Source of the DNA: a virus
Length of the DNA: 44,450 bases
Virus genome (UHGV): UHGV-0157893
Strand: one strand, 5' to 3'
Position 1 is the first letter of the stretch; each line of letters opens with the position of its first letter. Position numbers and translations under genes: made by a program. The notes beneath the pieces were generated by a model. It had not been told where the DNA came from. It saw nothing but the letters and a program-made list of their open reading frames with translations, and did not search any database. Of this stretch, positions 25,648 through 40,838 are shown one piece after another.

Positions 25648-25734
25648 TCAAAACCATTTGCACAGAATATATAAACACGCAATTAATGTTGCGCAGTATG
25701 TTAATACTTCCAACCAGTCGAATAGCTCTTTCAT
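25648..25734 (-). CDS. Tiny hydrophobic ORF 6 (28 aa, predicted single TM helix)
   Basis: ATG 25734 with AAGGG RBS; MKELFDWLEVLTYCATLIACLYILCKWF; stop TGA 11 nt before the terS RBS. Confidence 0.45.
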   Translation of the reverse strand: MKELFDWLEVLTYCATLIACLYILCKWF

Positions 25735-25744
25735 TGTTTACCCT

Positions 25745-25789
25745 TTATGCGAAGAAAACGATAACTACTAACAACGTGCATGTAGCCAT
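25745..25789 (-). CDS. Tiny hydrophobic ORF 5 (14 aa; weakest of the array)
   Basis: ATG 25789, weak RBS; MATCTLLVVIVFFA. Confidence 0.2.
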   Translation of the reverse strand: MATCTLLVVIVFFA

Positions 25790-25805
25790 GATTAAGAAAT
25801 CACTG

Positions 25806-25880
25806 TCAGGCATTGATAATAAACCCCACAATAACAACCGCCGCGATACATACGAATAATACAGCTTCGATAGTTTCCAT
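25806..25880 (-). CDS. Tiny hydrophobic ORF 4 (24 aa)
   Basis: ATG 25880 with AGGTGA RBS; METIEAVLFVCIAAVVIVGFIINA. Confidence 0.45.
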   Translation of the reverse strand: METIEAVLFVCIAAVVIVGFIINA

Positions 25881-25888
25881 ATATTCAC

Positions 25889-25957
25889 CTATTGAGTCAG
25901 CGCGGTCATGGTAAGAACAATCGCAACGATCAGGAAAAAGAAATCAAGCCATTTCAT
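25889..25957 (-). CDS. Tiny hydrophobic ORF 3 (22 aa)
   Basis: ATGA start/stop overlap with ORF 2; GGGAG RBS; MKWLDFFFLIVAIVLTMTALTQ. Confidence 0.45.
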   Translation of the reverse strand: MKWLDFFFLIVAIVLTMTALTQ

Positions 25958-26034
25958 TTTTTAAACTCCCGGTATACGTCAACGGCAATGACTACAACTA
26001 CAGCCACCAGCAATAGCATTTCGTATGCGTTCAT
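25954..26034 (-). CDS. Tiny hydrophobic ORF 2 (26 aa)
   Basis: ATG 26034 with GAAGGTG RBS; MNAYEMLLLVAVVVVIAVDVYREFKK. Confidence 0.45.
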   Translation of the reverse strand: MNAYEMLLLVAVVVVIAVDVYREFKK

Positions 26035-26044
26035 GTGAACACCT

Positions 26045-26119
26045 TCAGCTTTCAATGAATATCATGATCGCCAGCCATACAGCGACGCAGGCAGAAAGGG
26101 TAATGAGCGGGTCAATCAT
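26045..26119 (-). CDS. Tiny hydrophobic ORF 1 (24 aa)
   Basis: ATG 26119 with GAGG RBS inside the 3' end of the upstream gene; MIDPLITLSACVAVWLAIMIFIES. Confidence 0.45.
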   Translation of the reverse strand: MIDPLITLSACVAVWLAIMIFIES

Positions 26120-26967: not shown

Positions 26968-27450
26968 TTATTCTTTGCGTAAGCACTGCGTTTTGATGTA
27001 GTCCTGTAGGCCAGTGATCTGTGCGTCTTTCGTTTTTAGTTGTTCTCTGAGGGATAGATAAGCTGATTCAGCTGATTTAGAGAGTTGGCAGGTGGCTCCA
27101 TCAATGCGGCTGGCGGTTCCTGCGGAGTCGGACACTCGCACGGGTATTGCGTTGACGCGCAGCCTGATAGTGCCGTTATCAATGCCAGTGCGCAGATCGG
27201 CAATGTCAGATCTGATAGCTTTAATCTCATCGTGATACCTCTTATCAAGTTTTGACAGTTCGGCGTTTCGCTCCTTCATCTGCTGAATAGTGTTACTTGC
27301 TGTTTTCAGTGCGCCTTGCGTGGTCGTTAATTCTTCCTGTAACCTTGTCGCCTCACTCTGGTAATGGCATGTTACGGCTGTAAGGCTGGCAATGATGCAA
27401 ACAACAGCGGCGATAATTAACGCCTTCACCTTGTCCACGTTTCCCCCCAT
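26968..27450 (-). CDS. Rz: Spanin, inner membrane subunit (Rz)
   Basis: Track start TTG 27456; ATG 27450; N-terminal TM helix then coiled coil; follows endolysin. Confidence 0.75.
27036..27230 (-). CDS. Rz1: Spanin, outer membrane lipoprotein subunit (Rz1), embedded in Rz
   Basis: ATG 27230 with AAGAGGT RBS; lipobox LSGC; Pro-rich mature region; fully inside Rz in another frame. Confidence 0.7.
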   Translation of the reverse strand: MRLKLSDLTLPICALALITALSGCASTQYPCECPTPQEPPAALMEPPANSLNQLNQLIYPSENN

Positions 27451-27917
27451 TCGCAAACGGCATATTCAACATCACGGCGGTTTACCAGGCCTTGCCACTT
27501 CTTACCGCCAGCGTATACCCAGCGTTTAAGCTGTGCGCACGCTTCTGATTTCTTGCCGTCATTGAGTAGCTTTAATAAGGTTGATGTTTTGAAGTTGGTT
27601 GCGCCTACGTTATAGGCGAATGAATAAAGTGCTGCGCGGGTAAAATCTGATACTTCGACTTTGATATATGGGTCAATCGCTTTTGCGGTCTTGTGTAGAT
27701 CTTTATTTAACAAAGCATCGCATTCTGATTGCGTGTAAGTCTTGCCCAACATGATGTCTTTTCCGGTGTGACCATAGCAAACAGTCCATACACCAACAAC
27801 ATCACGATAAGGATCGTATTCCACGCCCTCTAATGGCTTAATCATCACCGCCGCAATAGCGATCGCCCCACCAGCCGCCGCCGCAACAATTTTGTTTTTC
27901 AGCGATTGGCTAATCAT
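27426..27917 (-). CDS. SAR endolysin (T4-lysozyme-like, GH24 type)
   Basis: ATG 27917 overlapping holin stop; N-terminal Ala/Gly-rich weakly hydrophobic helix (SAR-like); catalytic-region [23 protein letters not shown]. Confidence 0.8.
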
Positions 27918-37686: not shown

Positions 37687-37920
37687 TTAGAAATAATCCT
37701 GTTTCGTTCCCCAACGGTTGTTTAAATACCCCACCAACCACACAAAGCGCTCAATGCTGATTAGTGGGGCGACTTTGCGATAATGCTTATCTAATATCAT
37801 CCGCGTGGCTTTATCGCTGTAGCCGTTTTTCTCTACCTCCGCTTTGCAGGCCGAAAGCGCGGCGCGGGCGGCAGTCTTTACGGCGTTAAATTGCGGCTCT
37901 GACATATTGAATAAGGCCAT
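37687..37920 (-). CDS. Hypothetical protein
   Basis: ATG 37920 with GGTGA RBS (track ORF extended upstream in-frame). Confidence 0.45.
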   Translation of the reverse strand: MALFNMSEPQFNAVKTAARAALSACKAEVEKNGYSDKATRMILDKHYRKVAPLISIERFVWLVGYLNNRWGTKQDYF

Positions 37921-37924
37921 AGGA

Positions 37925-38161
37925 TCACCATGTGTCAGTCCAATCCGGCGCGGCAGTCCAGCAAAAACCAATGAATGCGCTAACAGCCAATAAAGCGCGG
38001 GCTGCAAAAAGAATATTCCCAATGTCGTTAAATTCAGGAAGCGACCACGTAATAAACATAGCCCCCAGCATAATAACACCGATAACAGTCATGGCCGCCA
38101 GGAAAACAAAAAGCGTAGCCAAAAGCCACGCCCCCAACCAGTTAAAAAAGCTCTTAAGCAT
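37925..38161 (-). CDS. Small membrane protein (two TM helices)
   Basis: ATG 38161 with GAGGA RBS; track start TTG 38176. Confidence 0.45.
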   Translation of the reverse strand: MLKSFFNWLGAWLLATLFVFLAAMTVIGVIMLGAMFITWSLPEFNDIGNILFAARALLAVSAFIGFCWTAAPDWTDTW

Positions 38162-38162
38162 T

Positions 38163-38366
38163 TTAAACGTCCTCAATTACCCCGCCTTTCACGCGCTCTT
38201 TAATATCCCATACGTGAGGCTTGCATATTTCCTGATAATAGTGATCCGGCCTGCTGCCGAAATACCATTTGCCATCCATATAAAAATAAACGCCAGAATA
38301 ATTTCCTGGCGCTGCCTTTGTTGCTGCTTCTGGAATTTTCCATTCCATGTAATGTTTAAATTTCAT
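38163..38366 (-). CDS. Hypothetical protein
   Basis: ATG 38366; 67 aa; no clear RBS. Confidence 0.4.
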   Translation of the reverse strand: MKFKHYMEWKIPEAATKAAPGNYSGVYFYMDGKWYFGSRPDHYYQEICKPHVWDIKERVKGGVIEDV

Positions 38367-38550
38367 GAGTTTTTAAATAACCCCTTCTGAATGCTTTGAT
38401 GTAAATTCCTAGTCGCCTTATATGTTGAACGCCATCAATAAGACGTATTAAATAAATCGCTCCTTTTGCGTCAGATACAAATCTACACCCGAAACCAATG
38501 CCAACTAATTTTAGGCTATCAGGTATTCGATAATCAGTTTCTTGTTCCAT
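38356..38550 (-). CDS. Hypothetical protein
   Basis: ATG 38550 with GAGGT RBS. Confidence 0.5.
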   Translation of the reverse strand: MEQETDYRIPDSLKLVGIGFGCRFVSDAKGAIYLIRLIDGVQHIRRLGIYIKAFRRGYLKTHEI

Positions 38551-38556
38551 ACATTA

Positions 38557-38646
38557 CCTCATATGGTATTCAATAAACCACCTGATAAACAGGCATAAGG
38601 CAATAAAACCCCAGCAACAGCACATATAAAACAATGTGTCGTCCAT
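38557..38646 (-). CDS. Possible tiny hydrophobic, Cys-rich ORF (29 aa)
   Basis: ATG 38646 right after upstream stop; MDDTLFYMCCCWGFIALCLFIRWFIEYHM; not in ORF track (below cutoff). Confidence 0.25.
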
Positions 38647-38648
38647 AA

Positions 38649-38867
38649 TTAAGCCTCAATAACACCGTAATCAAACGTGCCTAAATACCGTTCGATACTT
38701 ACAACCTCAATACCATCAATGCACCGTTTCCACACAGACACCCGGCTTTCATTTTCCCGGAAGTGCATATTAGAAAGCACTTCATCGGCTGGATAGCCTT
38801 TCCCGGCGACGTAGGCATCATGGCCTACGCCACCCTCAACGCAATAAAGCATGTATTCGCGGGCCAT
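38649..38867 (-). CDS. Hypothetical protein
   Basis: ATG 38867 with GGAGGA RBS; 72 aa. Confidence 0.5.
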   Translation of the reverse strand: MAREYMLYCVEGGVGHDAYVAGKGYPADEVLSNMHFRENESRVSVWKRCIDGIEVVSIERYLGTFDYGVIEA

Positions 38868-38966
38868 CTTGTTTTCCTCCGTGCCGTAAACCTTTTGATT
38901 TCGGTTTACAAAACGGATACGCGATCACAACACAAAATGTATATTTATGTGATCGCAATCACGCTG

Positions 38967-39587
38967 TTAATGCAGTACACGTTTTTCCGGTTCAGGCATT
39001 GGCTGTGAGTTTTTCCGTGCATCATTAAGCACCGCAATAGCCGCCTGTACACCTAGATCATTTGCACGCATATCATTGCCGACCATTTCAACGTAAAGCA
39101 ATGGCATGAAAAATTTTATTTCTTCCTCTTTGTGGCCTTCATCAATACATTTCTGCATCACCTTAACTTCAAAGAGTTTTTTCATCATGCCACGCATAGA
39201 ATACAGCGCAATGCTTCCCATACGTTTTTCATCAAGCGGGAAGATAACAGCGCTTCCGAACGCAAGCGGGTCAATATCTTCCGGCACTGGTACGCGCCCA
39301 TATTCCTCTTCCATGCGTTTTACGAAAGCAAGACAGAAGACATAGCGAGCTACCGATGTTTTTTCTTCCGCACTTAAAGACACATAATCGCGGATGTTTG
39401 CATCCATCACAATATCAACAATCTGTAACGCCAGATTCAAATCAGCGTCATACTTGCCAGCTTCCATATCTTTCAATACTTCGTGATAATCTTTAATTTC
39501 TACTTCATGAAAACTTGCGTCTTCAGTGTAGCGAGTGATTAACATGCCTTCGCTGCCGAGTGAATAAGCCGTTTTGATGTCGTTCAT
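38967..39587 (-). CDS. Hypothetical acidic protein
   Basis: ATG 39587 with AAGGA RBS; 206 aa. Confidence 0.5.
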   Translation of the reverse strand: MNDIKTAYSLGSEGMLITRYTEDASFHEVEIKDYHEVLKDMEAGKYDADLNLALQIVDIVMDANIRDYVSLSAEEKTSVARYVFCLAFVKRMEEEYGRVPVPEDIDPLAFGSAVIFPLDEKRMGSIALYSMRGMMKKLFEVKVMQKCIDEGHKEEEIKFFMPLLYVEMVGNDMRANDLGVQAAIAVLNDARKNSQPMPEPEKRVLH

Positions 39588-39599
39588 GATATTTATCCT

Positions 39600-39932
39600 T
39601 TATAGTGGATGATGCCATTTCATTTCAGTTTCTGGGTTGAACGGGTTTCCTTCACTTGAAAGGAATAAATCACGCGCCCGTTTTAGCTCTTCCTGGCTTA
39701 TTTCTATTTCATCAATCTGACCGAACGATCCAGGCATCATCCGTTTTAAATCAGATAGCGGGCGCATAAGGCCGCAACCGCGTAACAGCATATCGACCGC
39801 GAATTGTCGCCGCCCGGCGGCGTCATTAAAGCGCCGTGCCCAGGGAACAACCACGATCCGGCGTTCGAATTCAATAAATAGTGATAGCTTGTTTGTTTCG
39901 CTATCATATGCTTTATGGAATTTAATTTTCAT
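39600..39932 (-). CDS. Hypothetical protein
   Basis: ATG 39932 with GAGGTG RBS; 110 aa. Confidence 0.5.
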   Translation of the reverse strand: MKIKFHKAYDSETNKLSLFIEFERRIVVVPWARRFNDAAGRRQFAVDMLLRGCGLMRPLSDLKRMMPGSFGQIDEIEISQEELKRARDLFLSSEGNPFNPETEMKWHHPL

Positions 39933-40113
39933 TTAACACCTCGACATATTGCTCAAGATGCCATTTACCCACCTCGTCATCTTCTTCATCAAATAATGTT
40001 ACTTGACCCACAGGCCCGAAAGAAAAGGCAGCGACAATAAATTTATAGCCATACCACGTGCGGATCTTTTCGCCGCCTTTCAGGTCTTTAACTTTCACTA
40101 ATTTTATAGCCAT
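39922..40113 (-). CDS. Hypothetical protein
   Basis: ATG 40113; 63 aa. Confidence 0.4.
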   Translation of the reverse strand: MAIKLVKVKDLKGGEKIRTWYGYKFIVAAFSFGPVGQVTLFDEEDDEVGKWHLEQYVEVLNEN

Positions 40114-40376
40114 ACGCCAAACATCCCATTCAGTCCGGCGAACAATTTCCGCCAGTGGTCTTCAACATAATCCCGGAACGGCTTAACGCGAACATTGCGG
40201 GCCTTTAGTTCAATCTCATCAAAGTAGCGTGGCTCTATGATTTCCCCGTCCAGATATTTAACCAATAGCGGGCGCTCAAGATCGTTGCACATCTTGTTCA
40301 GTACAACCAATCCAGGGTCATCACGATATTCAGGCAATACGACAAGATCACCAGCCTTTGCATCCCACGTTTTCAT
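40104..40376 (-). CDS. Hypothetical protein
   Basis: ATG 40376 overlapping the stop of the upstream tiny ORF (TGATG); the track's TTG-start 118-aa version is judged an over-extension. Confidence 0.4.
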   Translation of the reverse strand: MKTWDAKAGDLVVLPEYRDDPGLVVLNKMCNDLERPLLVKYLDGEIIEPRYFDEIELKARNVRVKPFRDYVEDHWRKLFAGLNGMFGVWL

Positions 40377-40495
40377 CACAGCAACCCACTGAAAATAAAG
40401 TTGACCACCGCAGCAAGTGCGCCACAAAAAACAACCACAAACAGGAAGCAAATAATGCAAAACGCGACCGTCACAATATCCTTACCGACTTTCAT
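40376..40495 (-). CDS. Tiny hydrophobic ORF (39 aa)
   Basis: ATG 40495 with GAGGT RBS; MKVGKDIVTVAFCIICFLFVVVFCGALAAVVNFIFSGLL. Confidence 0.35.
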   Translation of the reverse strand: MKVGKDIVTVAFCIICFLFVVVFCGALAAVVNFIFSGLL

Positions 40496-40503
40496 GATTA
40501 ACC

Positions 40504-40617
40504 TCACATAGTAGTAATCAGCTTGATGATCGCCACCGTAATATAAAGCGATACGCTAAGATATAGCGCCGCGACAGCCAACGCCGCAGCCAATGCGGCA
40601 ATTTTTGCAAAGCTCAT
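40504..40617 (-). CDS. Tiny hydrophobic ORF (37 aa)
   Basis: ATGA overlap with the stop of 40614..40838; MSFAKIAALAAALAVAALYLSVSLYITVAIIKLITTY. Confidence 0.35.
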   Translation of the reverse strand: MSFAKIAALAAALAVAALYLSVSLYITVAIIKLITTM

Positions 40618-40838
40618 TTGCCACCCTCCGCAATTAACTTATCAAGCCATTTGTTATTAGCCAGCCGTTCGGCATCTTCGCCGAATGATTTACGGTCGCT
40701 TAATTCCTGGCGAGTAGGCTTAGGCCATTTATCGTGCCACCCCGCAGACGTTTCGAACTCATACAGGCCGCCGTCAAAACAAATAAGCTCATCACGACCG
40801 TCAGGAATTTCCTTGTCTACTTCTTTTTCTTCAATCAT
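40614..40838 (-). CDS. Hypothetical protein
   Basis: ATG 40838 with GAGGTG RBS; 74 aa. Confidence 0.5.
   Translation of the reverse strand: MIEEKEVDKEIPDGRDELICFDGGLYEFETSAGWHDKWPKPTRQELSDRKSFGEDAERLANNKWLDKLIAEGGK

Follow-up and report, generated by a model that had tools for sequence, protein, structure and literature searches.

The small membrane proteins that have been characterised in bacteria, such as AcrZ, MgrB, MgtS, KdpF and CydX, measure at most 50 amino acids (aa), cross the membrane with one helix, have no catalytic domain and work by binding larger membrane proteins (PMC12648545). Here we consider three open reading frames (ORFs) with much the same properties in the virus genome UHGV-0157893, a stretch of 44,450 nucleotides (nt) that we call the window. 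All three lie on its minus strand: ORF37 at 40504-40617, ORF39 at 40376-40495 and ORF30 at 38554-38646 (stop codon included; the coding part is 38557-38646). Their products of 37, 39 and 30 aa each contain one hydrophobic segment, their frames are conserved and they are equipped with translation signals. As in AcrZ- and MgrB-type proteins, the helix keeps its small-residue and polar positions, and genes of this kind often escape annotation pipelines. Unlike those proteins, which they do not resemble in sequence, the three have no known partner and are encoded by a phage; their setting is not a host stress regulon but an early lytic operon under antitermination. We argue that ORF37, ORF39 and ORF30 are almost certainly real protein-coding genes, and that their products are very probably membrane helices.

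Small-gene families of phages are said to have been surveyed on a large scale by Fremin et al. in 2022 (Cell Rep 39:110984), a study cited in PMC11188072. The latter paper reports that the Enterobacteriaceae commonly possess intergenic micro-proteins that are hydrophobic and evolve under purifying selection. The three ORFs resemble these micro-proteins, and reportedly the surveyed phage families too, in being short, mostly hydrophobic or transmembrane, under purifying selection, restricted to a lineage and of unknown function. What differs is that the evidence here is locus-specific, drawn from 55 genomes, conserved Shine-Dalgarno (SD) sites, the way the genes couple to their neighbours and the structure of their alleles.

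By sequence comparison, the window is a temperate coliphage or prophage of the mEp021 group (mEpimmI). Between 38.0 and 41.2 kilobases (kb) it shares 86-89% identity with mEp013, mEp021, mEp515, mEp010, mEp044, mEp554 and MagusPhagus, and 99.8% with a prophage in Escherichia coli (E. coli) CB7286 and GN04592; a related prophage is present in 35 of 5,426 complete E. coli genomes. The relatives used for comparison were gathered without conditioning on the tiny ORFs and comprise seven sequenced phages, three E. coli prophages and 44 IMG/VR contigs, the contigs having been retrieved through the flanking gene ORF72 (38649-38867, minus strand). A profile of another neighbour, ORF90, found zero relatives among the GTDB species-representative genomes, so that, the sequenced phages apart, E. 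coli prophages and IMG/VR contigs supplied all the comparative data.

An earlier note, drawn up from the letters of the window, had placed the three ORFs at these positions and had named conservation of the frames in relatives as a test of its proposal. The positions hold, although ORF30 encodes 30 aa and not the 29 it was given, and all three frames pass the test. ORF37 is intact in 52 of 53 genomes (23 protein variants) and ORF39 in all 53 (28 variants), while ORF30 is full length in 54 of 55 (15 variants). The exceptions are one genome (L039) in which a 1-nt deletion within an A-run, perhaps an error of sequencing, shifts the frame of ORF37, and another (L048) in which TGG has become the nonsense codon TGA in ORF30. 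Variable sites at codon positions one, two and three number 24, 19 and 36 in ORF37, 21, 22 and 35 in ORF39, and 9, 4 and 18 in ORF30, and the ratio of nonsynonymous to synonymous change (dN/dS), computed over distinct nucleotide sequences, is 0.19, 0.34 and 0.13, respectively. Accepted genes in the neighbourhood show matching ratios (0.10-0.31), whereas shifted sense frames in the same alignments give 0.76-2.7. For each ORF, five of the six frames contain a stop in at least one sequence, and only the proposed frame contains none. The antisense frame that shares wobble positions with it has a lowish ratio, as expected, and contains stops in 26 of 27 sequences for ORF37, 5 of 32 for ORF39 and 15 of 25 for ORF30. 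In the most divergent lineage, the MagusPhagus type, indels of 6 and 3 nt are in frame and a 1-nt indel falls exactly in an intergenic spacer. It is because the frames are conserved, the purifying selection is specific to them and the ribosome-binding sites are kept that we hold the three to be genes with such confidence.

A chance test points the same way. When ORFs were required to lie on the gene strand, to start with ATG, to encode 30-60 aa, to have an SD motif and to reach a hydrophobicity of at least 1.85 in their best segment, exactly three qualified in the window, namely ORF37, ORF39 and ORF30. One hundred dinucleotide-preserving shuffles contained a mean of 0.10 qualifying ORFs (maximum 2), and none when the threshold was raised to 2.2.

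One might nonetheless suppose that none of the three is a gene, the ORF37-ORF39 interval being a non-coding spacer with an intrinsic terminator and the ORF30 interval a further spacer. The mEp021 record has a terminator and no coding sequence at ORF37-ORF39, and PGAP likewise treats the intervals as non-coding. A GC-rich hairpin (GCCGCA-N5-TGCGGC, 40583-40599), equivalent to TERM_2 of that record, is present within Ala and Leu codons of ORF37, and the tail that comes after it in mEp021-type sequences, TTTGTCT (UUUGUCU in the transcript), is marginal as a U-tract. Terminators of mEp021 were reportedly tested by Valencia-Toxqui in 2023 (Arch Virol). A terminator termed t2, which may correspond to TERM_2, is stated in PMC11893012 to have been demonstrated experimentally. 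In the window, however, the sense-strand hairpin reads GCCGCAUUGGCUGCGGC then GUUGGCUG, and the letters downstream of it (GTTGGCTG) hold no U-tract, so that it does not have the makings of an intrinsic terminator. Nor is the hairpin conserved: the L044/L048 type lacks it, L022 has a weak stem of 5 bp at best, and in the Magus type it sits at another position. An unconserved hairpin cannot explain a conserved frame, and TERM_2 is at most a lineage-specific overlay that could coexist with coding in some lineages. The frames are open in some 98-100% of the 53-55 genomes, substitutions are specific to codon position, and frame-specific selection largely refutes the idea that these are not genes; we attach a negligible probability to it.

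Each ORF has a ribosome-binding site of its own. GGAGG stands 7 nt before the ATG of ORF37 (40625-40629, minus strand) in 52 of 52 genomes. For ORF39 the motif is GAGG, 6 nt before the ATG (40502-40505, minus strand) and overlapping the stop codon of ORF37; it is found 5-7 nt from the ATG in 46 of 53 genomes, and a GTG-extended version of ORF39 with 43 aa is out of frame in several relatives. GAGG also precedes ORF30, by 7 nt (38654-38657, minus strand), and either GAGG or GGAGG is kept at this spacing in 55 of 55 genomes. The ORFs are, moreover, tightly packed against their neighbours. The stop of the upstream gene ORF74 (40614-40838, minus strand; a homologue of mEp021_22 belonging to phrog_28542, of unknown function) and the ATG of ORF37 (40617-40615) overlap as ATGA, by which the two would be translationally coupled. 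The stop of ORF39 overlaps the start of ORF90 (40104-40376, minus strand; a homologue of mEp021_23) in 53 of 53 genomes, in the window as TGATG. The earlier note had all three ORFs joined to neighbours by such overlaps, but true overlaps exist at just these two of five junctions; the other three are spacers, of 8 nt between ORF37 and ORF39, 2 nt between ORF72 and ORF30, and 3 nt between the stop of ORF30 and ORF64 (38356-38550, minus strand), which follows in the same frame. ORF30 thus lies close to its neighbours but overlaps neither of them. Given the conserved SD sites and the tight packing or overlap, we infer that the tiny ORFs are translated roughly in step with their neighbours.

This layout might suggest that the ORFs are relays, in which ribosome passage couples the operon, prevents Rho-dependent polarity and feeds ORF90 and ORF64, the sequence of the peptides being irrelevant. 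Junctions that are tight or overlapping are what such a relay would look like, as is the fact that every tiny ORF holds, in its 3' end, the SD of the gene that follows. If ribosome passage were all that mattered, however, any sense codon should be tolerated. Instead, we find selection on amino acids (dN/dS 0.13-0.34), invariant residues spread along the helices, and a length that is kept and changes by in-frame indels only. A pure relay is therefore very improbable.

The start of ORF90 bears on a further ORF, of 118 aa with a TTG start (40104-40460), which had been suspected of being an over-extension, and this suspicion was justified. Its first 28 codons overlap ORF39 in a different frame; that frame contains stop codons in mEp021, mEp515, mEp010, mEp554, mEp013 and mEp044, which is six of the seven sequenced relatives, and its dN/dS across the ORF39 region is 1.1, that is, without constraint. 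Counted from the conserved ATG at 40376, ORF90 has 90 aa.

The predicted peptides are MSFAKIAALAAALAVAALYLSVSLYITVAIIKLITTM for ORF37, MKVGKDIVTVAFCIICFLFVVVFCGALAAVVNFIFSGLL for ORF39 and MDDTLFYMCCCWGFIALCLFIRWFIEYHMR for ORF30. On the Kyte-Doolittle scale, with a span of 19 aa, their most hydrophobic stretches reach 2.29, 3.08 and 1.88. Given an alignment of 29 sequences, AlphaFold predicts one helix for ORF39, spanning residues 5-38, with a mean predicted local distance difference test (pLDDT) of 88; in its model of a natural fusion protein the part from ORF30 is likewise a single helix (residues 3-31), though of low confidence. Hydropathy and, for ORF39 and the ORF30 segment, structure prediction thus agree with the single hydrophobic helix that had been proposed for each ORF. 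Helices that pack against one another typically have small-residue motifs and polar positions. Invariant residues of ORF37 are K5, I6, A7, L9, A11, Y19, S23, Y25, I30, L33 and I34, among which A7xxxA11 and the mid-helix Y19, S23 and Y25 are packing candidates; in ORF39, F12, C13, F17 and G25 are invariant and A28/A29 nearly so, forming a small-residue packing motif. ORF30 combines an acidic N-terminus (MDD), a hydrophobic helix containing Cys and an invariant basic and aromatic tail (R-W-x-IEYHMR). With four Cys among 30 residues it is Cys-rich, as the earlier note had remarked, and C9 alone of these is invariant. Its acidic N-terminus and basic tail suggest, by the positive-inside rule, that ORF30 is probably oriented with its N-terminus out and its C-terminus in; for ORF39, an N-terminus on the inside is predicted.

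How might such peptides act? By analogy with the bacterial proteins described above, we favour, on balance, the view that these are early inner-membrane micro-proteins of mEp021-group phage that act by binding larger membrane proteins. Each product would insert into the inner membrane as a single hydrophobic alpha-helix of about 30-40 residues and would bind, helix to helix, to larger membrane proteins, whether host proteins of the envelope, transport or division, or phage partners; binding would change the activity of the partner early in lytic growth. That ORF37, ORF39 and ORF30 are modulators of larger membrane proteins in this sense is a more tentative proposal, to which the main alternatives are a toxin-like role and an exclusion role.

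In the first of these, the peptides would be toxins that kill the host or depolarise its membrane without a specific partner, in the manner of type I toxins (Hok, TisB, Ldr, Ibs) or of phage 'kil' products. The size and hydrophobicity of the peptides fit, and the likeness to Hok, TisB, LdrD, IbsC, ShoB and DinQ extends to their being single-helix inner-membrane peptides that occur in prophages. Prophages often carry type I membrane toxins (PMC12648545), and the cell-death factor Ipe is encoded in the same operon (PMC11893012). There is, furthermore, an antisense structure inside the 5' end of ORF37: on the plus strand, at 40583-40609, the hairpin is followed by AATTTTTGCA, a T-run, and has the look of a terminator. 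This structure is gone, however, in variants of the Magus and L044 types. No promoter-like site for an antisense RNA was found near any of the ORFs (plus strand, around 38.5 and 40.5 kb) by simple consensus scans, which a weak promoter could escape, and an Rfam scan of the window returned no antitoxin or other RNA family. Type I toxins are translationally silent, whereas here strong and exposed SD sites (GGAGG or GAGG, conserved 5-7 nt from the ATGs) and translation coupled to that of the neighbours are indicated. Early loss of membrane potential in lytic growth would be harmful to the phage, and there is no homology to known toxins. We consider a toxin-like role unlikely.

Looser likenesses can be drawn to other small peptides that act on the envelope, such as the kil products of lambda and P22 and the 37-aa LysM of phage M, although Kil of lambda is not known to span the membrane. 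Single-gene lysis proteins come from single-stranded RNA or single-stranded DNA phages, where they are the sole lysis function. Unlike these phages, the window has a separate lysis cassette, with a spanin-like gene at 26968-27456, more than 11 kb from ORF37, ORF39 and ORF30. The three ORFs lie outside this cassette, among early recombination and accessory genes, which is not where a holin, antiholin or spanin would be located.

All genes between 38.0 and 41.2 kb are on the minus strand. In the mEp021 record, the operon runs from the repressor and TERM_1 through gp16, gp17 (an N-like antiterminator), gp18, erf, ssb and abc2 to gp22; the site of ORF37 and ORF39 comes next, then gp23, and the operon continues with genes that include ipe, dam, dcm, ninF/G, rusA and Q. 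Judged by this gene order, ORF37, ORF39 and ORF30 would lie within a long early operon and be co-transcribed with its genes. According to PMC11893012, antitermination depends on Gp17, and lysogens of mEp021 form vesicles and die through the action of Ipe. A further likeness is offered by Ipe and gp28 of mEp021: both come from small early genes, seemingly non-essential, and both act at the envelope of the host. The gene ipe belongs to the same transcription unit as the three ORFs; in sequence, the three are unlike Ipe.

It is in this operon setting that the second alternative can be judged, according to which the peptides are superinfection-exclusion or defence factors that block the entry of competitor DNA at the inner membrane. 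T4 Imm, P22 SieA and HK97 gp15 are exclusion factors that block DNA entry, and small membrane proteins are a common form that such factors take. The ORFs, as predicted membrane proteins of a temperate phage, would suit this role, and the mEpimmI group invests in exclusion by way of Lpp lipoproteins (PMC11893012). An exclusion factor should, however, be expressed from the repressed prophage, for which consensus scans found no sigma-70-like promoter, and the ORFs sit inside an antiterminated lytic operon. PADLOC gave no match. Read against the lipobox motif [LVI][ASTVI][GAS]C of PMC11893012, ORF37, ORF39 and ORF30 contain no lipobox; VVF-C and FCIIC in ORF39 and YMCCC in ORF30 do not fit it. The published activity of the group has, moreover, already been credited to Lpp (PMC11893012). 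This role, too, strikes us as improbable.

If the peptides are instead modulators of larger membrane proteins, the arrangement of the genes may hold clues to how they combine. ORF37 and ORF39 would probably operate as a two-gene module: their most divergent allele types always co-occur, across four ORF74 and three ORF90 types, a pattern that fits such a module, and ORF39 and ORF90 types reassort, with 10 of 12 possible combinations seen. ORF30, for its part, may serve as a tether for the ORF64 product, which would be cytoplasmic, or may cooperate with it. The in-frame spacing of 3 nt between the two is conserved among relatives, and in one prophage lineage (four contigs) they are naturally fused in frame into a protein of 96 aa (...EYHMR-WG-MEQEAD...), as in L056 (a Logan contig of SRR26441135), where 3001-3291 matches 38356-38646 of the window. 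The AlphaFold model of the fusion is a weak one, with a pLDDT of 60. It is conceivable, but doubtful, that an ORF37-ORF39 two-helix complex and an ORF30 tether for ORF64 serve undescribed functions in envelope takeover or early exclusion. If so, these functions would be specific to mEpimmI, a phage family prevalent in the human gut, and their host targets could be found by simple genetics.

Several observations weigh against the modulator reading and its modules. Translation and membrane insertion are predictions from sequence, and database searches found no homology between any of the three and a characterised protein. RefSeq PGAP omits all of them in a near-identical prophage. The frameshift in ORF37 and the nonsense codon in ORF30, in one genome each, suggest that the genes are dispensable at least occasionally. 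As to the two-gene module, tight physical linkage (ORF37 and ORF39 are 8 nt apart) is sufficient to account for co-inheritance, and some ORF37/ORF39 recombinants exist. As to the tether, the fusion of ORF30 to ORF64 may be a product of decay rather than a functional arrangement, since the prophage that carries it also has ORF206 split into pieces of 78 and 115 aa. ORF64, moreover, comes in two very divergent allele types (MEQETDYRIPD... and MKKVGGYTLPD..., compared in L002 and L004-L007) beside an ORF30 that is nearly invariant, which does not look like co-evolution. ORF30 may mark a boundary of mosaic recombination.

As families, the three are narrowly distributed. None has a significant match in Pfam, PHROGs, NCBIfam, PADLOC or the Protein Data Bank (PDB). 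A profile search with a natural 40-aa variant of ORF39 recovered 71 clusters of 37-48 aa; a query for ORF37, extended by seven upstream in-frame codons outside the protein, recovered 48 clusters of 35-37 aa. Members of both families come exclusively from E. coli or Caudoviricetes contigs and have no functional name. For ORF37, tblastn gave no matches, probably owing to low-complexity masking. Homologues of ORF30 were found by tblastn in only seven mEpimmI phages among 50,697 phage records, and an exhaustive HMMER search of 1.84 billion representative proteins for ORF30 returned none. We therefore regard these as three ORFan families that appear confined to the mEp021 phage group. ORF37 and ORF39 were also considered as paralogues, which we rejected at an hhalign probability of 1.7%. 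The neighbours ORF90, ORF74 and ORF64 have no relatives in the PDB and no recognisable fold or family.

Annotation of the ORFs is uneven. Six relatives annotated with PHANOTATE or Pharokka in GenBank list all three as hypothetical proteins, and public protein collections hold the peptides as unnamed or 'hypothetical' entries. All three are omitted from the manually curated mEp021 reference record (MH706966.1, our L001), and the 2025 paper on mEpimmI and its supplements (PMC11893012) make no mention of them; in two other strains, RefSeq PGAP calls the ORF39 homologue as the sole one of the three. The practical value of our analysis hence lies in annotation correction, as conserved genes are left out of the mEp021 reference and of RefSeq. 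Its biological value is modest: three well-supported, lineage-restricted families are added to the small membrane proteins of phages, and an operon with a known membrane-active factor, Ipe, gains the ORF37/ORF39 pair and the ORF30-ORF64 pairing as candidates for function. The finding is correct, well supported and ordinary, and leaves current understanding in place.

Some further features of the region deserve mention. Altogether, the mEp021 record lacks at least five conserved small genes that are annotated in six relatives (ORF37, ORF39, ORF30, the homologue of ORF63 and a DUF7274 gene), and it places the predicted terminators TERM_2 and TERM_3 inside two of these. PGAP calls some homologues of ORF90, in E. 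coli prophages H15, H20, H27 and others, a 'toxin-antitoxin system toxin subunit', a label for which we found no support by matches in Pfam, NCBIfam, PADLOC or the PDB. The Ipe homologue itself lies downstream, at 37687-37920 on the minus strand; Ipe is the mEp021 'inducer of pleiotropic effects', tied to haemolysis and cell death. Next to it, at 37925-38161 on the same strand, is a predicted membrane protein of 78 aa that starts MLKSFFNWLGAWLLATLFVFLAAM and is homologous to mEp021_28. The ORF track over-extends both of these genes through TTG or GTG starts.

Around ORF30, its 3' 66 nt are invariant in eight sequenced phages. We considered an RNA element here and rejected it: the larger set has ordinary synonymous variation, and the last codons double as the SD of ORF64. 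Upstream, the gap between ORF206 and ORF72 (38868-38966) consists of about 100 nt of non-coding but strongly conserved sequence. It contains a perfect palindrome, GCGATCACA-N18-TGTGATCGC (38921-38929 and 38948-38956), and a second inverted repeat of 15 nt directly before the SD of ORF72. In two relatives, L012 and L047, both arms of the palindrome are altered in concert (TCGCA and TGCGA), so that its symmetry is kept. The palindrome may be an operator or an RNA hairpin that heads the ORF72-ORF30-ORF64 block.

Finally, the earlier note had set the three ORFs beside an array of six hydrophobic ORFs near terS, and this array does exist. It occupies 25648-26119 on the minus strand, between a 194-aa gene and terS, and consists of six tandem ORFs of 22-28 aa. 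In relatives, either the matches to this 600-nt stretch are broken into several pieces across 950-1190 nt or just half of the stretch is matched, and the content of the array appears to vary between phages.

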